A model generated the notes under the pieces. It was given only the letters and a program-made list of their open reading frames with translations, did not search any database and had not been told where the DNA came from. The translations under genes and the position numbers were made by a program. A stretch of DNA of 16,123 nt from a virus (Duplodnaviria; Heunggongvirae; Uroviricota; Caudoviricetes), in IMG/VR virus record IMGVR_UViG_2558860288_000003, positions 1 to 16,123 of that record; one strand, 5' to 3'. Of this stretch, positions 1 to 16,123 are shown in pieces; within the stretch, counting starts at the first letter, position 1; the number at the start of each line of letters is the position of its first letter.

Positions 1-216
1 AACACCCTCTGCCCAGGCGGCGTATTTCGGCAGCAGCTCCACCTTGATTTCCGCTTTTTTGACCGTGGACTGAACGCCCTTGAGACGGCGGCGGTCTTCC
101 GCCAGTTGCAGCAGCATCAGGTCATAGCCCGATGCGTGGCGAACACTGCCGCCCTCGCGGGCGGCCTGTTCAGCCTGAACGCGCAGGCGATGCTGCCGTG
201 CGGGACTCAGGCTCAT
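1..216 (-). CDS. Terminase small (endonuclease) subunit, P2 gpM family; N-terminal 72 codons only, gene runs off the window
   Basis: Minus-strand ATG at 216-214. The translation MSLSPARQHRLRVQAEQAAREGGSVRHASGYDLMLLQLAEDRRRLKGVQSTVKKAEIKVELLPKYAAWAEGV matches the N-terminal pattern of P2 gpM as I remember it (SPAQRH..RV, RHA, ML..LA.D.R.LK, ELLP, W..GV). A TAA of the preceding in-frame reading lies 3 nt upstream, as at the P2 N/M junction. Confidence 0.7.
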   Translation of the reverse strand, partial: MSLSPARQHRLRVQAEQAAREGGSVRHASGYDLMLLQLAEDRRRLKGVQSTVKKAEIKVELLPKYAAWAEGV

Positions 217-219
217 GGA

Positions 220-420
220 TTACGCTCCGGTTTCGGCTGCGGCGGCGCTGAAATCACCAATCTGGATGTTTTCCACCAGTGCGGCGCAGCGGTAGTCCTC
301 AACCACATAGGCTTCATTAACGGATTCAAAGTTTTCAATCCGGTCACGTTTCGGGTTGTCGATAACTGAACGGCGGCGGGTGTCTTCCTGCCAGTAGATG
401 GACAGGTCAACGAAGCCGAC
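220..420 (-). pseudogene. Major capsid protein (P2 gpN family) C-terminal remnant of about 66 codons with no start codon
   Basis: The minus-strand frame that ends in TAA at 222-220 reads VGFVDLSIYWQEDTRRRSVIDNPKRDRIENFESVNEAYVVEDYRCAALVENIQIGDFSAAAAETGA. This resembles the remembered gpN C-terminus (LSIYY..RRVI.ENPK.DR.EN.ES.N..YVVEDY...LVE.I..GDFS). It is bounded upstream by an in-frame stop at 421-423, contains no Met, and its 5' end overlaps the terminase reading frame. Confidence 0.5.
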
Positions 421-528
421 TTAAACCCTAACGTCGCCAACCGCAACAAAGGCCCGCGCCGTCAGCCGGAAAAGAATGTCTTCACCGATGAACAGATTGA
501 GAAGCTGGAAGAAATCTTCCATTCCTCC

Positions 529-1866
529 ATGTTCAACTACCAGCGCCACTGGTGGGAAGCCGGAAAAACCAACCGCATCCGCAACCTGCTGAAGTCACGC
601 CAGATCGGCGCGACCTTCTATTTTGCCCGTGAAGCCCTGATTGACGCTCTGCTTACCGGACGTAACCAGATTTTTCTTTCCGCCAGCAAGGCACAGGCCC
701 ACGTCTTCAAACAGTACATCATCGACTTTGCCAAAGAAGTGGAGGTGGAGCTGAAAGGCGATCCGATGGTGCTTCCCAACGGGGCCACACTGTATTTCCT
801 CGGCACCAATGCCCGCACGGCCCAGAGTTACCACGGCAACCTGTATCTGGATGAATATTTCTGGATACCGAAATTCCAGGAGCTGCGCAAAGTGGCTTCT
901 GGTATGGCTATTCACAAGAAATGGCGACAAACCTATTTTTCCACGCCATCCAGCCTGACACACAGTGCTTATCCGTTCTGGTCCGGTGCACTGTTCAACC
1001 GTGGGCGCAACAAAGCCGATAAGGTGGACATCGACCTGTCCCACAGCAATCTGGCCCCCGGCCTGCTGTGCGCAGACGGGCAATACCGCCAGATAGTCAC
1101 CGTGGAAGATGCGGTGCGCGGCGGCTGCAACCTGTTCGACCTTGACCAGTTGCGCATGGAGTACAGCCCGGACGAATACCAGAACCTGCTGATGTGCGAG
1201 TTTGTGGACGATCTCGCGTCCGTGTTTCCGCTCAGCGAGCTGCAGGCGTGCATGGTGGACAGTTGGGAAGTCTGGACCGACTTTCATGCTCTGGCCCTGC
1301 GCCCGTTTGGCTGGCGCGAAGTGTGGATCGGTTATGACCCGGCAAAAGGTACGCAGAACGGCGACAGTGCCGGATGCGTGGTGGTGGCACCGCCAGCCGT
1401 GCCAGGCGGTAAGTTCCGCATTCTTGAGCGTCACCAGTGGCGCGGGATGGACTTCCGCGCCCAGGCTGACGCCATCAAAAAACTGACCGAACAGTACAAC
1501 GTGACATACATCGGCATCGACTCAACTGGCGTCGGCCACGGGGTTTACGAGAACGTGAAAGCATTCTTTCCTGCCGTCCGGGAGTTTGTCTACAACCCCA
1601 ACGTTAAAAACGCCCTGGTACTCAAGGCCTACGACATTATCAGCCACCGCCGTCTGGAGTTTGACGCCGGACACACCGACATAGCGCAGTCATTCATGGC
1701 AATCCGTCGCGCCACCACCGCCAGTGGCAACCGCCCGACCTATGAAGCCAGCCGCAGCGAAGAAGCCAGCCACGCCGATCTGGCCTGGGCAACGATGCAC
1801 GCACTGTTTAACGAACCGCTGCAGGGCGAATCCGCCAATACCAGCAATATTGTGGAGATTTTTTGA
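529..1866 (+). CDS. Terminase large (ATPase) subunit, P2 gpP family; apparently N-terminally truncated
   Basis: The 445-aa ORF contains WWEAGKTNRIRNLLKSRQIGATFYFAREA and an acidic-residue-rich nuclease-like C-terminal half typical of P2-type large terminases. The frame stays open upstream to a TGA at 367-369 with protein-like sequence (LNPNVANRNKGPRRQPEKNVFTDEQIEKLEEIFHSS) but no start codon. The stop TGA overlaps the portal ATG. Confidence 0.8.
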   Translation: MFNYQRHWWEAGKTNRIRNLLKSRQIGATFYFAREALIDALLTGRNQIFLSASKAQAHVFKQYIIDFAKEVEVELKGDPMVLPNGATLYFLGTNARTAQSYHGNLYLDEYFWIPKFQELRKVASGMAIHKKWRQTYFSTPSSLTHSAYPFWSGALFNRGRNKADKVDIDLSHSNLAPGLLCADGQYRQIVTVEDAVRGGCNLFDLDQLRMEYSPDEYQNLLMCEFVDDLASVFPLSELQACMVDSWEVWTDFHALALRPFGWREVWIGYDPAKGTQNGDSAGCVVVAPPAVPGGKFRILERHQWRGMDFRAQADAIKKLTEQYNVTYIGIDSTGVGHGVYENVKAFFPAVREFVYNPNVKNALVLKAYDIISHRRLEFDAGHTDIAQSFMAIRRATTASGNRPTYEASRSEEASHADLAWATMHALFNEPLQGESANTSNIVEIF

Positions 1867-2894
1867 TGGGAAAGAGTAAGAAGAACCGCGCTGCGGCGAC
1901 GAAACAGATCCAGCTTAAAAGTCAAACTACAGCCGAAGCATTCAGCTTCGGCGATCCCGTTCCTGTTCTGGACCGCCGTGAACTGCTGGACTATGTGGAA
2001 TGCGTACAGATGGATCGCTGGTATGAGCCGCCTGTGAGTTTCGACGGACTGGCGCGAACCTTCCGCGCCGCCGTGCATCACAGTTCACCAATTGCGGTGA
2101 AATGCAATATTCTGACCAGTACCTACATCCCTCACCCGCTGCTCAGCCAGCAGGCTTTTTCACGTTTTGTGCAGGACTATCTGGTATTTGGTAACGCCTA
2201 TCTGGAGAAACGCACGAACCGGTTCGGTGAAATTATCGCTCTTGAGCCTGCCCTGGCAAAATATACCCGACGCGGGTTAGACCTGGATACCTACTGGTTT
2301 GTGCAATACGGTATGACCACGCAACCGTATCAGTTCACGAAAGGCAGCATTTTTCATCTGATGGAACCAGATATCAACCAGGAGATCTACGGCCTGCCCG
2401 GTTATCTTTCTGCCATTCCGTCAGCCCTGCTCAACGAGTCCGCCACGCTGTTCCGCCGTAAGTATTACATCAACGGCAGCCATGCAGGCTTCATCATGTA
2501 CATGACCGACGCCGCGCAGAACCAGGAAGATGTAAACAATCTCCGTAACGCGATGAAAAGCGCCAAAGGTCCAGGCAACTTCCGCAACCTGTTTATGTAC
2601 TCGCCTAACGGCAAAAAAGACGGGCTTCAGATTATTCCTCTGTCAGAAGTCGCGGCAAAGGATGAATTTTTGAATATCAAGAACGTGAGCCGGGATGACA
2701 TGATGGCAGCACACCGAGTGCCGCCGCAAATGATGGGGATAATGCCGAATAATGTTGGGGGATTTGGGGATGTGGAGAAGGCTAGTAAGGTTTTTATGCG
2801 TAATGAATTGATACCGCTACAAAACAGAATAGAAGAACTCAATAAATGGCTCAAAGATGACATAATAAAATTCATGCCATACAGTTTCATATAA
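1866..2894 (+). CDS. Portal protein, P2 gpQ family
   Basis: The ORF is about 342 aa from the ATG at 1866 (the ORF track began at an in-frame TTG at 1863). Size and position immediately downstream of the terminase ATPase gene match the P2 P-Q operon, with a TGATG overlap and GGAG upstream. Confidence 0.8.
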   Translation: MGKSKKNRAAATKQIQLKSQTTAEAFSFGDPVPVLDRRELLDYVECVQMDRWYEPPVSFDGLARTFRAAVHHSSPIAVKCNILTSTYIPHPLLSQQAFSRFVQDYLVFGNAYLEKRTNRFGEIIALEPALAKYTRRGLDLDTYWFVQYGMTTQPYQFTKGSIFHLMEPDINQEIYGLPGYLSAIPSALLNESATLFRRKYYINGSHAGFIMYMTDAAQNQEDVNNLRNAMKSAKGPGNFRNLFMYSPNGKKDGLQIIPLSEVAAKDEFLNIKNVSRDDMMAAHRVPPQMMGIMPNNVGGFGDVEKASKVFMRNELIPLQNRIEELNKWLKDDIIKFMPYSFI

Positions 2895-2899
2895 AACTA

Positions 2900-2920
2900 A
2901 GGGCCGAATACCTCGGCCCT
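2900..2920. terminator. Stem-loop between the convergent portal gene and cargo gene X
   Basis: AGGGCCGA-ATACC-TCGGCCCT forms a perfect 8-bp stem with a 5-nt loop. On the minus strand it is followed by TTAGTTTTAT, so it is a plausible intrinsic terminator for gene X and possibly also for Q. Confidence 0.45.
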
Positions 2921-2925
2921 CTACA

Positions 2926-4131
2926 TTAAGATTTATGGCTAAAGAGTATACCTGTAACAGAACGTTGATAGGCATCAAGCTTCTCTTGCCTCTGCTTAAA
3001 TTTAGATTTGATATCACTAATACTCGGAATACCTATTACTCCAAGGCCTGCACTTAACGCCGTTAAAGTAGTATTGCCAGTCAGCGCTCCAGCAATTGCT
3101 ATAGCACCATTTGCGATACATGGTAGGACATCTAGTCCGTAAATTCTCAATTTCTCTTTTTGGGCTTTTGCAAGAATCCTTTGATGTTCAATAAAAGCCC
3201 GGTCTACATTATCAATTACTTTTTGCGTTGTCCTCGAAAAGCTCTCTGCCGAAGAATTGATTAAAGAGTCAACACCATTTGATAAGATGGATCTTACATC
3301 CTCCATCAATTTGTTACGTCTCAACTCAATTATTTTATTGACCGGTACATTTCCTAACCATGAAAAACCATCTTGCATACCAGCAGATAACGCATGAACC
3401 ATATGCAAATTTTTTAGTTCAATATCATTGACATCAAAATTAAGAGATTCGTACTCAATAAGCCAAGTATAATAGAGCCAAGATGTGTCTGCATTTATAT
3501 ATGGAGTACTACCAAGTTCTTGTGCATTACATTTTGCTGAATAGGCTTGCGGCATTCTTCCAATGCAGGAAAGGAAAACCTCCATTCCAGCATGATCACC
3601 AACAAGATTACGTGATATTCTTTTTTTATCAGATAGTAGTTTTTCTAATTGAGTTTTTGGATTTAGCCCCCATGCTGTATCAAAAATAAGTCTATCTGCT
3701 CTCTTAATATTTTTAAGAACAGCATCAATATCATTCATCGAATAACTAAAATCTCGAAATTCATCGTAGCTTTCGAACCGTCGATCATAGAGATATTGCG
3801 CATGAGTCAGAGCATAAGGCTCACAAAAACTCATCAAATTTTTTTTGCTCTCAGTTTCAAAATCTCTTCTATCCGGCAAAATTAATACTATTGCTGGCTC
3901 TATATCTTCAAGCGCTACTTCTTTATATGTCATACATGTTAGGACATGCTTCAGAAGTATCCTTGTAAACTCAGCCTTATCTGACTTTTCATAGAGACGA
4001 CCGACTCTTAATATAGGACATGGAAGTGAAATAGTATCAACATACAACCCTGCAATAGAGACAGCATTCTCATCAAATGCAGGAAATAAGTCACCAGAAA
4101 AATTAGCTTTAAACTGAGAACCATCCTGCAA
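2926..4131 (-). CDS. Uncharacterised protein, C-terminal ORF of split gene X (candidate defence / abortive-infection effector)
   Basis: The 401-codon ORF in the track starts at a TTG. The same frame stays open and protein-like for 40 more codons upstream, to a stop at 4252-4254 (SIKFFSQQEEYVKQIEDIFPELYNQVIEFWQVTSDIGVIH), with no ATG. The C-terminal region has a hydrophobic Gly/Ala-rich stretch (LPCIANGAIAIAGALTGNTTLTALSAGLGVIGIPSI). The gene is strongly AT-rich by eye. Confidence 0.6.
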   Translation of the reverse strand: MQDGSQFKANFSGDLFPAFDENAVSIAGLYVDTISLPCPILRVGRLYEKSDKAEFTRILLKHVLTCMTYKEVALEDIEPAIVLILPDRRDFETESKKNLMSFCEPYALTHAQYLYDRRFESYDEFRDFSYSMNDIDAVLKNIKRADRLIFDTAWGLNPKTQLEKLLSDKKRISRNLVGDHAGMEVFLSCIGRMPQAYSAKCNAQELGSTPYINADTSWLYYTWLIEYESLNFDVNDIELKNLHMVHALSAGMQDGFSWLGNVPVNKIIELRRNKLMEDVRSILSNGVDSLINSSAESFSRTTQKVIDNVDRAFIEHQRILAKAQKEKLRIYGLDVLPCIANGAIAIAGALTGNTTLTALSAGLGVIGIPSISDIKSKFKQRQEKLDAYQRSVTGILFSHKS

Positions 4132-4205
4132 ATGTATTACACCAATATCGGATGTTACCTGCCAAAACTCTATTACCTGATTATATAACTCAGGAAAAAT
4201 ATCTT

Positions 4206-4598
4206 CTATTTGCTTAACATATTCTTCTTGTTGAGAAAAAAACTTGATGCTTTATGTGGCGTTGCATTAGTTTTTTTCATCAGATAAAACAACTCGCCAA
4301 AATTACTAAAAAGAATATTAAAGTAAGAACTTTGCAAGTCCTGAATAGAGTATTTGTTTTTTATATCTTCTCTTTCTAAAAAGTGATTAACCGCTGCTCC
4401 CATAGCCCTTATTCTGCCATCAACAGTAGAAGGGTCAACTTTACCATCCTGTCGCAGCCTTATTCTTTTAAAACTTTCAATAAAACCTTCTACAAGATGA
4501 TGAGCTATTTTTAGTTTTCCCGCTTCCAGTTGTTGCTTAATGAGAAAAACACGCTCAGTTAAATCATCTACATATTCCTCATCTTGATATTTTTCCAT
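4206..4598 (-). CDS. Uncharacterised protein, N-terminal ORF of split gene X
   Basis: ATG at 4598 with a GGAG 5 nt upstream (ttaatGGAGcgtttATG). The 130-codon ORF ends shortly after a T7 homopolymer (plus-strand A7 at 4236-4242). One extra T would fuse it in frame to ORF 2926..4131. Confidence 0.55.
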   Translation of the reverse strand: MEKYQDEEYVDDLTERVFLIKQQLEAGKLKIAHHLVEGFIESFKRIRLRQDGKVDPSTVDGRIRAMGAAVNHFLEREDIKNKYSIQDLQSSYFNILFSNFGELFYLMKKTNATPHKASSFFLNKKNMLSK

Positions 4599-4706
4599 AA
4601 ACGCTCCATTAAAATATTTAATAATGCATATAAGAATAGTTAATAATATTTACAGTAACTATATCACATTAGATCCAGATTGTTACACTGTTGCGCGCGC
4701 TCGTAT
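4599..4706 (-). promoter_or_regulatory. AT-rich upstream region of gene X (putative promoter)
   Basis: About 100 bp of very AT-rich non-coding sequence immediately upstream of the gene X start, with several TATA-like hexamers. No -35/-10 pair could be assigned with confidence. Confidence 0.3.
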
Positions 4707-4718
4707 CCCCGCCACGCC
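4707..4718 (-). other. cos-like motif: GGCGTGGCGGGG on the minus strand, matching the first 12 nt of the 186 cohesive end as remembered
   Basis: The plus strand reads CCCCGCCACGCC. The remembered 19-nt cohesive ends are GGCGTGGCGGGGAAAGCAT (186) and GGCGAGGCGGGGAAAGCAC (P2). Here the first 12 nt match 186 exactly and 3 of the remaining 7 also match (about 15/19). Orientation and position (between the A/tum side and Q) fit a cos site. Confidence 0.4.
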
Positions 4719-4767
4719 TGCTCGCTTTGTGTAGTGGTTTTCATGCAGGTGCATGACATAAGCAAAA

Positions 4768-4787
4768 GCCCGCCAGAACTGGCGGGC
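4768..4787 (-). terminator. Hairpin GCCCGCC-AGAACT-GGCGGGC followed on the minus strand by TTTTGCTT
   Basis: Perfect 7-9 bp GC-rich inverted repeat. On the minus strand a T-run follows it, so it is a possible second terminator or structured element in the cos-proximal non-coding region. Confidence 0.35.
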
Positions 4788-5003
4788 CTGCATCAAAACG
4801 ATCCTCAAACGATCATGCGTTCTCATGCAGCATAGTCATGCACGGATGAGAGAAATGAATGCGCGTATCCAAATGCCCGTTTGAAAAACGCAGATGAACT
4901 AAAAAAGCTTAAGGTCTACTATGAGCGAGAAACGGACATTTAATTTTCGAGTAGTGGAAATCGAAGCCAGTACCTGCCGGAGCCATAGTATCGAAACCAC
5001 GAA

Positions 5004-5066: not shown

Positions 5067-6059
5067 TTACTCAACGGTCACAACTATTTTGCCGACCTGT
5101 CCATTGGACTCCATATAGCGCTGGGCGTCTGCAATCTCTTCGAACGGGAACGTCTTATCGATGACCGGCTTCAGTTTGCCGACTCGCAAGCCTTCTGTGA
5201 TAAAGGATTTTGCGCGCGCCATTTTTTCAGAGTCCGTCGTGATTTCAAACAGCTCATATCCACGCAGGGTGAGATGCTTACCGAGAATATCAAATACAGG
5301 CACAAGCATGTCACGGCTATCGAGCGCGCCGTACTGGAAAAACATACCCTGTGGTGCCATCACCTGCGTCAGTTTTGCCACGTCCGGCCCACCGACGGGA
5401 TCAAAAACAATATGGGCACCTGCGCCATCTGTTGCACGACTGATTTCAGCAACCATATCCTGCTCCGCAGTAGCAATGACGGCGGCTGCGCCAGCTTTAA
5501 GGAGCATTTCGCTTTTTTCAGAGGTCCGTGTGAGTGCAATTGGGTTTGCACCCAGCATGTTAGCAATCTGTATGGCAGCCAGACCCACGCTGCTTGATGC
5601 TGCGCGGATCACGACATTCTGACCAGCCTGAAGGTTGCCATACTCAACCAGCGCACCATAAGCGGTGACATACATCATCCAGCTTGCGGCGGCTTCCTCG
5701 AATGAAAGGTTTTCAGGATGCTTTACGACAGCATGAACCGGTGCGTTGACCACTTCACCATACATGCCGTATTCATTAAACATAAATGAAGGGATCACGC
5801 TTACCCGATCTCCAGTGGTAAACTCATCTACATTCTCACCTACTGCCTGTACAACGCCGGCCGCTTCATAACCAAGACGTGCCGGAAATTCCGGCTCAAT
5901 AACATATTGGCCGTTGCGGTACATGATTTCTGCACGGTTGATACCTATCGCATGTACGCGGATCTGCACTTCACCCGCTGTCGGTGCAGGCACCTGCACA
6001 TCAACAACTTCCAGCACTTCCGGGCCACCGGTGCGGTTAAAGGTAATAACTTTAGACAT
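5067..6059 (-). CDS. NAD(P)H:quinone oxidoreductase-like enzyme (medium-chain dehydrogenase/reductase superfamily)
   Basis: The translation MSKVITFNRTGGPEVLEVVDVQVPAPTAGEVQIRVHAIGINRAEI... has the typical quinone-oxidoreductase N-terminus and a Rossmann-type glycine-rich segment (VVIRAASSSVGLAAIQIA). ATG at 6059 with a GAGAG SD; the track start at 6065 is a TTG. Confidence 0.85.
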   Translation of the reverse strand: MSKVITFNRTGGPEVLEVVDVQVPAPTAGEVQIRVHAIGINRAEIMYRNGQYVIEPEFPARLGYEAAGVVQAVGENVDEFTTGDRVSVIPSFMFNEYGMYGEVVNAPVHAVVKHPENLSFEEAAASWMMYVTAYGALVEYGNLQAGQNVVIRAASSSVGLAAIQIANMLGANPIALTRTSEKSEMLLKAGAAAVIATAEQDMVAEISRATDGAGAHIVFDPVGGPDVAKLTQVMAPQGMFFQYGALDSRDMLVPVFDILGKHLTLRGYELFEITTDSEKMARAKSFITEGLRVGKLKPVIDKTFPFEEIADAQRYMESNGQVGKIVVTVE

Positions 6060-6208
6060 ATTCAACTCTCTTCAGTTAAAGGCACACCTTCAGAATAATG
6101 CCGAAGGGATGCCCGAATCATTTGTGAACAATCTACGTTGTTACGAACACACCAGAAATAGCTGAGAGGGAACTTCAGTATTAATTATCCATTAACAATC
6201 CGCCTGCT

Positions 6209-7099
6209 TCAGCGGATCTGCGTGGCCAGAATATCACTGAACCAGTCGATAAAGACGCGCACTTTTGGAGAAAGGTAGCGCCTGTCGGGATACATCACTG
6301 ACACGGGCTTTGACACCGATGGGTATTGCGGCAGAATCTCTTCAAGAGCGCCGGAAGCAATATGGGGAGCAACGGCATCATAGGTAGCCTGGATAATGCC
6401 CAGACCAGCCAGAGCACAAGAAAGCAGAATATCGGAATTATCAACCAGCAGGCTGCCCGCAGGACGTAGCGAAACAATGCTCCCGTCTTCGATAAACTTC
6501 CATTCCATGACGTCACGACTGTGGTCGCTAAAAAAGTTAATTGCCCGATGTTTATCCAGATCCGCAAGTGTTTCTGGCCGCTCATGCTGCTGCAGGTAAG
6601 ACGGGGCTGCACAGGTAACCATCCGGATGTCACCAAGACGTCTGGATATAAAACTAGAATCTTGAAGCGCCCCCAGGCGGACAAGGCAATCTACGCCTTC
6701 CGTAATCAAATCAGTTTTTTTATCGGAAGAAACCAGCACAACTTCAATACCTGGATACAGTGCCTGAAAATGCCTGAGATTAGGGATCAATATGGAATGC
6801 GCCAGCGCCAGGGGCACATCAAGTCTCAGGCGTCCTCGCGGTGGAAGTGTCGGTGAAAAACTGGCCATCATGTCATTAACTTCGGCCAGAACATGCCTAG
6901 CATGATGATAGAACTCATCCCCTTCAGCAGTAACGCTCAGCTTTCGGGTTGTGCGATAAATGAGTTTTACACCCAGATCATGCTCTATCTGCTGTATCGC
7001 TTTGCTCACAGTGGGGCGATGAATCTGAAGTACATCAGCAGCTTTCGTGAAGCTACCCTGCTCAACAACCTGTATGAAAATATTTAGGTATTCAATCAT
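6209..7099 (-). CDS. LysR-family transcriptional regulator
   Basis: From the ATG at 7099 the protein starts MIEYLNIFIQVVEQGSFTKAADVLQIHRPTVSKAIQQIEHDLGVKLIYRTTR..., the canonical LysR-family N-terminal helix-turn-helix. The rest has a substrate-binding-domain-like size of about 296 aa. Confidence 0.85.
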   Translation of the reverse strand: MIEYLNIFIQVVEQGSFTKAADVLQIHRPTVSKAIQQIEHDLGVKLIYRTTRKLSVTAEGDEFYHHARHVLAEVNDMMASFSPTLPPRGRLRLDVPLALAHSILIPNLRHFQALYPGIEVVLVSSDKKTDLITEGVDCLVRLGALQDSSFISRRLGDIRMVTCAAPSYLQQHERPETLADLDKHRAINFFSDHSRDVMEWKFIEDGSIVSLRPAGSLLVDNSDILLSCALAGLGIIQATYDAVAPHIASGALEEILPQYPSVSKPVSVMYPDRRYLSPKVRVFIDWFSDILATQIR

Positions 7100-7333
7100 G
7101 TTGGCATGCACGTGCTCACCTGTTTTGTAGGCTGTTCAAAACCGACATTGTAAAGTAAACCATCCCAACGACATTATTTCTTTTCGTTCAGATAAGGGCT
7201 TTCTGACTGTCACAATGTCCACTTCTGGCACAAAGCGGACGACCATTTTCAAATGGCCGTCGCATCTAACACCTCGTTTCACTCATTGTTCAACCTTACC
7301 CCCATCAGAAGGAATTCTTTCGGGGGCAACGTT

Positions 7334-14043: not shown

Positions 14044-15060
14044 ATGACCATCAGAAAACAGCCGAACGGAAAATGGTTGTGTGAGTGCTATCCCAATGGA
14101 CGCAATGGTAAGCGCGTGCGTAAGCAATTTGCTACCAAAGGCGAAGCCATTGCATTTGAAAGCTTCACCATGGACGAAGTAAACAAAAAGCCATGGCTTG
14201 GTGAGAAGGAAGATCGGCGGCGATTATCAGAAGTGATTGAGCAGTGGTATTCCCTATATGGTCAAACACTCGCAGACCCCAAACGCCTGATGGCGAAACT
14301 TAGAATTATCTGTAATGGTCTAGGCGATCCCATCGCCTCTGAGCTGACAGCAGGTGATTTCACAAAATATCGGGAAGCCAGATTAAAGGGGGAGGTCCAA
14401 AATGAAGACGGCTCGTTCATGTCACCCGTTAAACCTCGCACAGTTAATCTTGAGCAGCGTAACCTGTCATCGGTGTTCGGTACATTGAAAAAACTAGGGC
14501 ACTGGTCCGCACCAAACCCGCTGGCAGGGCTTCCAACCTTCAAAATTGCTGAAGGTGAATTGGCTTTTCTTTCCACGGACGAAATCAAACGCCTGCTTAA
14601 TGCCTGCGCCGAATCTCAAAACACCAGCCTACTAATGATTGCAAAAATATGCCTGGCTACTGGTGCGCGATGGAGTGAAGCAGAAAACTTGCAGGGCCAT
14701 CAGTTATCAAAATACCGGATCACCTATACCAAGACAAAAGGTAAGAAAAATCGTACCGTGCCGATATCTCAAAATCTGTATGATGAACTCCCCAAGAACA
14801 GAGGGAAACTATTCACACCGTGCAGAAAAGCCTTTGAACGAGCAGTAAAGCGAGCAGGCATCGAGCTACCAGAGGGCCAATGCACCCACGTGCTGCGTCA
14901 TACATTCGCCAGTCATTTTATGATGAATGGCGGGAATATTCTTGTCCTTAAAGAAATATTGGGCCATGCCGATATAAAAATGACGATGGTTTACGCACAC
15001 TTTTCTCCAGACCATCTAGAAGATGCTGTTACAAAAAATCCTTTACATAATTTGGTTTAA
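14044..15060 (+). CDS. int: Tyrosine integrase, P2/186 family
   Basis: The 338-aa protein starts MTIRKQPNGKWLCECYPNGRNGKRVRKQFATKGEAIAFESF..., typical of P2-family integrases. The C-terminal catalytic region has HVLRHTFASHF and a Tyr in MVYAHF. Confidence 0.9.
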   Translation: MTIRKQPNGKWLCECYPNGRNGKRVRKQFATKGEAIAFESFTMDEVNKKPWLGEKEDRRRLSEVIEQWYSLYGQTLADPKRLMAKLRIICNGLGDPIASELTAGDFTKYREARLKGEVQNEDGSFMSPVKPRTVNLEQRNLSSVFGTLKKLGHWSAPNPLAGLPTFKIAEGELAFLSTDEIKRLLNACAESQNTSLLMIAKICLATGARWSEAENLQGHQLSKYRITYTKTKGKKNRTVPISQNLYDELPKNRGKLFTPCRKAFERAVKRAGIELPEGQCTHVLRHTFASHFMMNGGNILVLKEILGHADIKMTMVYAHFSPDHLEDAVTKNPLHNLV

Positions 15061-15065
15061 TAGAA

Positions 15066-16123
15066 TGAAAAAAAAGCTCACATTAATCATTACCTACGCA
15101 ATCATTACTATCTTAATTGCCTTAGCATTGATATACACTAATCGTCCAAGAGTTTTTATCTTCTTTAGTGTAGCTTATATACTTGGATTGATACTTATGT
15201 TCTATTGCTTCAATTGGCTTAAACTAAATGAGAAAAATCTATTAAAACAACCATTATTCATAGCATCTATTATCGTACCGTTAAAAATGTTTGTTTTGTA
15301 TGGCCTCTGGGCTTGGAAAGGCCACGATTTAAATTTCACATCAGACGGTTTTAATCACTTTCTTGACATCTCTAAATTGCCATTATTTATTTTAGCTTCT
15401 TCGGTACCTCTTGCAGCAATCGTCAACAATATACATAGAACCACACAAACAGAGAACCAAATAGAAAAAACACAAAAGCAAATCAATCTTGTTATTGAAA
15501 AAAACACCACTGATTCATATTACTCACATCTGAAAAGCTTCGCTGACATATTCCAAACACTACCAACATTTAAATTATCAAGATTAAATAAAGAAACTAG
15601 TGATATAGACAGTATTGAACTATCTGTAGTTCATCCGTACACTCTTTATAAAAATATTTTCAAATCATCTTCCATTGATAATGGCTATAGCACCGTTGTC
15701 GAAGAAGATTTTATTCGAAAAACAACAAATCATTATAACAACATAAACAAATCGCTTAAGTCCAACAACAAAAATCATGACGACCAATTAGTTAGCCTAC
15801 AACTCATAGAATCAAACATAATTCAACTTTGCAGACTACTTGGAATTGATTATAAATACCAAGAACATCTTTTCTCAATAATTCTTGAACATCCAAAACC
15901 AGATACGGAAGCCATAAGCATCTCATTCAATGATGAAAAACAACTAAAGCAAATGCTTTGGGGACTAAGAAATATTCTCATTGAGTTATATGTTTTAATC
16001 GACAAGGACCCCTCTATCTTCCAAACAGGTAAAAGCAATGGTGATTACATACCTGAGTACGCACTATATGACGAAAAACTCTTTACAAGCATTTTACCTA
16101 TATCAAATGACCAGCGCATTTAA
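15066..16123 (+). CDS. AT-rich uncharacterised membrane protein (four predicted N-terminal TM helices plus a soluble domain of about 220 aa)
   Basis: Complete ORF of 352 aa from the ATG at 15066 (alternative ATG at 15023 overlaps the int 3' end); it ends in TAA at the window edge. Four hydrophobic segments (LTLIITYAIITILIALALIY, VFIFFSVAYILGLILMFYCF, LFIASIIVPLKMFVLYGLWAW, LPLFILASSVPLAAIV) precede a hydrophilic Asn/Lys-rich domain. Codon usage is very AT-rich. Confidence 0.6.

Follow-up and report, generated by a model that had tools for sequence, protein, structure and literature searches.

Recurrent loss of one T from an eight-base run most likely inactivates an accessory gene of P2-like prophages in Escherichia coli

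Analysis of a 16,123-nucleotide stretch of prophage DNA (the window), supported by comparison with related loci, showed that a frameshift interrupts gene X (positions 2926 to 4598, minus strand), a single-gene cargo of 557 codons, with seven T residues in a run that holds eight in intact alleles. We consider it probable, at roughly 70%, that this is a recurrent, ordinary slippage frameshift (T8 to T7) inactivating an accessory gene of P2-like prophages. Intact gene X would be a single-gene accessory cargo of 557 aa containing the T8 run, and replication slippage in E. coli ECC-Z, the strain of the window, would have taken one T out of it. Translation would then end after 121 native and 9 foreign codons, the other 436 native codons would be left without a credible start, and the gene would thereby most likely be inactivated in ECC-Z. 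The same slip appears to have arisen independently in other lineages; such recurrence would be expected because an eight-base run is a mutational hot spot and the loss of an accessory gene is tolerated. Mononucleotide runs have been described, in qualitative terms, as indel hot spots in E. coli (PMC8510543).

On the plus strand the tract is an A7 run at positions 4236 to 4242 (4231 to 4250 reads TTGAGAAAAAAACTTGATGC), that is, T7 in coding sense on the minus strand, and it is the site of a -1 frameshift relative to the T8 alleles, in which Ser-Phe-Phe-Ser is encoded as AGT TTT TTT TCT. The original prediction, made from the sequence alone, had claimed that a 1-nt frameshift in this run splits gene X, and the sequence bears this out. 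Translation from 4598 to 4206 on the minus strand yields an N-terminal open reading frame (ORF) of 130 aa, made of 121 native codons and 9 out-of-frame codons followed by TAG; its C terminus reads ...HKASSFF, then, as had been claimed, nine further codons (LNKKNMLSK), then the stop. The second frame (...KFFSQQEEYVKQIEDIF...) is open through to the stop at 2926 to 2928 and, again as predicted, runs into a C-terminal ORF of 401 codons (2926 to 4131, minus strand), counted from the TTG at 4131, which is the earliest possible start in that frame. Upstream of this TTG, the native frame has no stop as far back as the tract. Between the stop of the 130-aa ORF and the TTG lie 75 nt. When one T was inserted into the tract and the result translated, the predicted single ORF of 557 aa was recovered, with the two frames joined as ...ASSFFSQQEEYVKQ..., which is the join proposed for a T8 tract. 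The premature stop 9 codons past the tract is accompanied by no compensating second indel in gene X.

Gene X was present at 99.3% identity or more in 19 records from 17 complete E. coli genomes, and 11 of these loci were read. Ten carry T8 with an annotated 557-aa coding sequence, and the remaining one, a frameshift-ridden "plasmid" prophage copy in strain 13P477T, carries T9. T8 was also found in all eight matches among JGI metagenome and IMG/VR contigs, and the comparison of tract length across related loci that the original prediction had called for thereby gave T8 in 18 of 19 other loci read, with one T9. As a point against the main reading, no T7 tract was found on the chromosome among the 17 complete E. 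coli genomes with gene X. Exact-sequence look-ups returned intact 557-aa variants in at least 684 contigs, the T7 product in 22, and the T9 product in 1. A 557-aa E. coli protein (P0001) shares 99.6% identity with the repaired gene X sequence, and nine further 557-aa variants differ from it by 2 to 8 residues. As a separate observation, two "plasmids" of strain 13P477T (L003, NZ_CP019275.1, and L011, NZ_CP019279.1) are copies of its chromosomal P2-like prophage; both carry many annotated frameshifts, the T9 form of gene X lies in one of them, and they look like poorly polished contigs of excised phage and not true plasmids.

The architecture of the family is that of one protein. Homologues that uniformly encode two separate proteins had been named as the pattern that would speak against a single split gene; among the 120 homologues listed, 118 are single proteins of 553 to 589 aa (nearly all 553 to 562 aa), and the other two are shorter entries, one of them marked partial. 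Even homologues as distant as 43% identity consist of one protein of about 557 aa, the two shorter entries apart. Members also occur in Citrobacter, Klebsiella, Yersinia, Enterobacter, Pantoea, Serratia, Aeromonas, and Aquitalea. On either side of the break and across it, some residues are invariant, F145 and W146 among them, and H156 is conserved. Since the homologues are single ORFs and T8 is nearly universal, gene X encodes a single protein and is intact with T8.

Pyrosequencing on the 454 platform miscalls long homopolymers, and the T7 tract counts among the window's longest runs. Sequence identity is 100% between the window and AHHN01000010.1 from E. coli ECC-Z, a bovine mastitis isolate, the genome of which (AHHN00000000) was produced by Roche/454 FLX with Newbler only (PMC4373696). 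With 454 as the sole source of the genome sequence, a miscall is a real risk, and to this extent the sequencing error raised as one option by the original prediction deserved to be taken seriously. That T7 is an undercall of a true T8, with gene X intact in ECC-Z, is nevertheless unlikely. A contig of the Logan assembly of a separate run, SRR9913842 (L029), seen as an assembly alone, is 100% identical over 3,203 nt, T7 included, and it also has the same alcohol dehydrogenase neighbor and the same private V332L change. This change (codon 332, in the region of window position 3604) is nonsynonymous, lies downstream of the frameshift, and was found only in AHHN01000010.1 and SRR9913842; as a single change, it fits relaxed constraint after inactivation. 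The other eight-base run of gene X (3839 to 3846) was called at full length, and no other gene of the window or prophage is frameshifted. Compared with three close relatives, T7/T8 is the only indel within gene X, and no other indel was seen over the 4.4 kb compared (window 408 to 4844), artifacts at the ragged upstream end of the alignment apart. The exact 130-aa T7 product was found in 22 contigs, which correspond to 38 index blocks and stem from many NCBI and SRA projects, and several of these places stand for groups of similar contigs, as inheritance within clones would produce. The same T7 allele in at least 22 other contigs of many projects likewise argues against a miscall.

T7 occurs on three haplotypes of gene X and six distinct flanking backbones. 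One T7 locus (L016) is the same within the gene as a T8 locus (L010), the tract apart, the L010 type being about 8 single-nucleotide polymorphisms (SNPs) from the main type. Another (L019) belongs to the I475T type shared with L007 and matches L007 within the gene, and the other T7 loci are either identical to the T8 loci L001, L005, and L006 or one private SNP away from them. Within the 2.7-kb downstream flank (portal and terminase), there are 0 differences between L016 and L010 and 0 between L019 and either L003 or L009, and L016 and L019 each show 67 to 78 differences from the other T7 loci. Three haplotypes and six backbones thus point to at least three, possibly six, independent slips from T8 to T7. 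Of the options that the original prediction had left side by side, the pseudogenizing slip is supported both by T8 in relatives and by T7 on at least three haplotypes. The T7 alleles of other strains reside in prophages whose called structural genes look complete, and the slip is therefore not tied to prophage decay.

Other runs of gene X are hit as well. For these runs, the products expected from +1 and -1 changes were derived and looked up as exact sequences. The studied T8 run gave 22 contigs with the -1 product and 1 with the +1 product. The A8 run at gene position 753 (window 3839 to 3846) gave 3 contigs, on two haplotypes, for -1 and 1 contig for +1; the A7 run at gene position 321 (window 4271 to 4277) gave 2 contigs for -1 and 6 for +1; and the A6 run at gene position 236 gave 1 contig for -1. 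Neither change was found in any contig for A7 at 972 or A6 at 1184. The A8 and A7 runs at 3839 to 3846 and 4271 to 4277 are intact in the copy in this window. Run frameshifts altogether affect about 5% of gene X copies, which number roughly 720, with T7 at about 3%, and when independent events rather than contigs are considered, the T8 run does not clearly stand out.

An AlphaFold2 model of the intact protein (73-sequence alignment; mean pLDDT, 82; pTM, 0.75) places residue 121, at which the native part of the 130-aa product stops, inside an N-terminal helical domain modeled with a pLDDT of 89 to 94. The 401-aa ORF begins at native residue 157, and 35 conserved residues (122 to 156), which comprise most of a long helix and include the invariant F145 and W146, are lost from both products. 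Since the predicted break falls inside a folded domain and residues 122 to 156 are in neither product, we infer loss of function, and gene X in this strain is most likely inactivated. One might still imagine that the 130-aa and 401-aa polypeptides are made separately and are jointly functional, given that both ORFs are annotated as genes in public records and that a weak GGTG stands 8 nt before the TTG at 4131; no other signal precedes the 401-codon ORF. We regard this as extremely improbable: the listed homologues are single proteins, the two shorter entries apart, the missing segment forms most of a confidently modeled helix, and the 75 nt between the first stop and the TTG rule out coupling of the overlap type. 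Two functional half-proteins were rejected for the single-ORF homologues and the loss of these residues from both products. The T7 allele may, on the other hand, not be a complete null. Its zero frame reads AG U_UUU_UUU C, a perfect, in-register X_XXY_YYZ heptamer, and a -1 shift on it would give exactly ...SSFFSQQ..., i.e., the wild-type protein. In E. coli, heptamers free of stimulators are reported to shift 2- to 10-fold over a background of about 0.05%, and transcriptional slippage has been linked to U7 and A7 runs (PMC4066793), so that a -1 ribosomal slip, or an extra U added by RNA polymerase, could yield a little 557-aa protein. The 96 nt 3' of the tract, however, fold no better than shuffled sequences (z = +0.26), which gives no sign of a downstream stimulatory structure; no Shine-Dalgarno-like element was seen in the AT-rich sequence upstream of the heptamer; and a two-frame layout is not conserved in the homologues, which are plain single ORFs, and the arrangement thus did not evolve as a recoding site. 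Given the lack of downstream structure and the low published rates, rescue of the T7 allele by a -1 slip should be well under 1%. A leaky allele is thus very doubtful as an account of the locus, and an evolved recoding site was rejected, with neither a stimulatory structure nor a conserved layout.

The original prediction had also raised a reversible on/off switch, that is, a contingency locus in which selection keeps the tract and a costly or autoimmune toxic defense gene is on at T8 and off at T7 or T9. T7, T8, and T9 are indeed all seen among near-identical alleles, the independent events number at least three, and T7 also occurs in prophages with complete-looking called structural genes. 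The OFF alleles are intact apart from the tract, and this near absence of further decay in T7 alleles is a counterpoint to simple inactivation, as it would also fit a reversible state. We nevertheless find no support for a switch and consider it unlikely. The closest homologues, from Citrobacter (79% identity), Klebsiella aerogenes (75%), and Yersinia (73%), encode Ser-Phe-Phe-Ser as TTC TTT TC, without a run; in runs, the intact gene is no richer than its synonymous-codon shuffles (P of about 0.22); the frameshift products of the A8, A7, and A6 runs show that the tract site is not special; and OFF alleles make up only about 3% of copies. An eight-base A/T run in mismatch-repair-proficient E. 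coli also mutates far more slowly than classical contingency tracts do. The pattern is what an incidental run would show in an AT-rich gene, and not what a maintained switch would. We can further speculate that the T run serves as a population-level attenuator of a costly, membrane-acting defense gene, with T7 off but slightly leaky by a -1 slip on U_UUU_UUU and returning to T8 under phage pressure. This seems quite improbable; if true, E. coli would offer here a rare example of a prophage defense gene under simple-sequence phase variation. Taken together, the evidence favors ordinary slippage that recurs and inactivates the gene.

What gene X encodes can be described only in outline. Searches of Pfam, PHROGs, and NCBIfam returned no significant match, a profile search of PDB sequences gave no meaningful match, and neither PDB nor BFVD returned a fold relative. 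The PADLOC profile for DitB (positions 95 to 344 of 361, a partial match) matches residues 195 to 452 with an E value of 6.7e-10, and 50 of the 73 family members match it. No match to DitA was found in gene X or in the two window neighbors scanned against PADLOC, and the family has no constant partner gene. By these sequence criteria, gene X is therefore best described as a single-gene module with a DitB-like core and not as an Aditi system. Strong hydrophobicity is confined to two adjacent Gly/Ala-rich segments at about residues 486 to 528, which overlap a weak LeoBC match and might form a membrane-inserting hairpin. Family members (about 553 to 562 aa) also share the invariant motifs LPCP, KH..T.MTY, GRMPQA, and TSW.YYTWL.EY. 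Gene X looks like a self-contained transcription unit. A sigma-70-like promoter match (GTAACA-17-TATAGT with TG; 4658 to 4686, minus strand), which is a consensus match only, lies about 60 nt upstream of the ATG; a Shine-Dalgarno sequence, GGAG (4604 to 4607, minus strand), lies 5 nt upstream of the ATG at 4598; and a terminator-like hairpin (2899 to 2921, minus strand) follows directly past the stop of gene X, before the convergent portal gene. The putative terminator of the previous unit (4789 to 4766) is upstream of the promoter-like match. From its location, a role in phage exclusion is plausible, and the function is probably anti-phage. It is likewise plausible that the product is potentially toxic, as the original prediction had suggested, in view of the hotspot location, the DitB-like core, and the putative C-terminal hydrophobic hairpin.

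The prophage is P2-like, with the order terminase, portal (1863 to 2894, plus strand), gene X, a zinc alcohol dehydrogenase with a LysR regulator, and DinI, followed by replication gene A, Dam, early genes, CI, and integrase. The GC content of the gene X stretch is about 34 to 36%, versus about 50% or more in its flanks. Rousset et al. (2022; PMC9122126) describe the slot between gpA and gpQ as a P2 hotspot of variable, often anti-phage cargo, and the intact protein, WP_024235280, appears in the hotspot table there as "hypothetical" (PMC9122126). Gene X lies between gpA and gpQ with variable neighbors and is thus hotspot cargo. Depending on the prophage, its upstream neighbors are none, a DUF2971 protein, a SIR2 and ATPase pair, a pair of 71-aa and 280-aa proteins, or the LysR regulator and alcohol dehydrogenase; DinI is the sole upstream neighbor in many loci. 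The portal gene adjoins gene X in every prophage of that comparison. Copies in Citrobacter and K. aerogenes (among L022 to L027) occupy the same portal-adjacent slot of P2-like prophages, and the Yersinia copy adjoins a giant LPD/MuF protein instead of the portal gene. The zinc-type alcohol dehydrogenase (332 aa) and LysR-family regulator (300 aa) of the window (5067 to 7111, minus strand, about 50% GC) have no match in PADLOC; they constitute metabolic-looking cargo in a slot that usually holds defense genes.

The prophage of ECC-Z is itself defective. In window positions 2 to 407, the capsid gene (3' end) and gpM (start) are recognizable by sequence match, and the terminase gpP takes over immediately at position 408, from about codon 103 on. 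This amounts to a 2,171-bp deletion that takes the scaffold gpO, most of the capsid gpN, and the N terminus of the terminase. The source contig begins 2 bases before the window. At the other end, an ORF of at least 366 aa (15023 to 16123, plus strand, 31% GC) runs off the window and shares 38 nt with the 3' end of the integrase gene; it has no match in Pfam or PADLOC and may represent a further horizontal acquisition at the edge of the prophage. A search for a cos site gave nothing usable.

These results have several implications. A recent survey (2026; PMC13586616) reported that pseudogenes similar to defense genes are rare in P2, and gene X, a P2 hotspot gene in which about 5% of copies carry run frameshifts, provides a small counter-example to this rarity. 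Such a fraction hints that gene X carries a cost. Annotators should treat the "hypothetical proteins" of 130 aa and 401 aa in this window and in at least 22 other assemblies as a single gene, merged and flagged as frameshifted. In P2-like prophages of several genera, the gene X family adjoins the portal gene; it is a candidate defense family, for which the natural T7/T8 pair offers a ready null and wild-type control.

Among known systems, Aditi is reportedly a two-gene defense system composed of DitA and DitB, described by Millman et al. in 2022 and represented as such in PADLOC-DB. Gene X resembles it in the match of residues 195 to 452 to the DitB profile; it differs in being a single 557-aa gene with its own putative transcription signals and no DitA match, and, unlike DitB, it has an additional N-terminal helical region and a C-terminal hydrophobic region. 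Gene X shares the portal-adjacent slot and variable neighbors of P2 old, tin, and other gpA-gpQ cargo, as presented in the available sections of the hotspot study (PMC9122126), and bears no sequence relation to either old or tin; it is not named among the systems which those sections describe as tested. With the programmed -1 sites of dnaX, IS911, and IS3, the T7 allele has in common an in-register heptamer and a -1 product that equals the wild type, whereas it lacks a stimulatory structure and a conserved two-frame layout, and its expected efficiency is below 1%.

Contingency loci that switch defense genes include the G tract of pglX in the Streptomyces Pgl/BREX system and the type III mod genes of Haemophilus and Neisseria. 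Like these, gene X has a homopolymer within the coding sequence of a likely defense gene, and the length of this homopolymer varies among close relatives; unlike these, its tract is short and unenriched, the nearest homologues lack it, few alleles are OFF, and other runs are hit. Slippage frameshift pseudogenes at mononucleotide runs of bacterial accessory and prophage genes present the same features as gene X: a one-base change in a run of eight that leads to an early stop, relatives whose intact alleles are otherwise near-identical, and repeated hits in the gene's longest runs. Between them and gene X we see no substantive difference.
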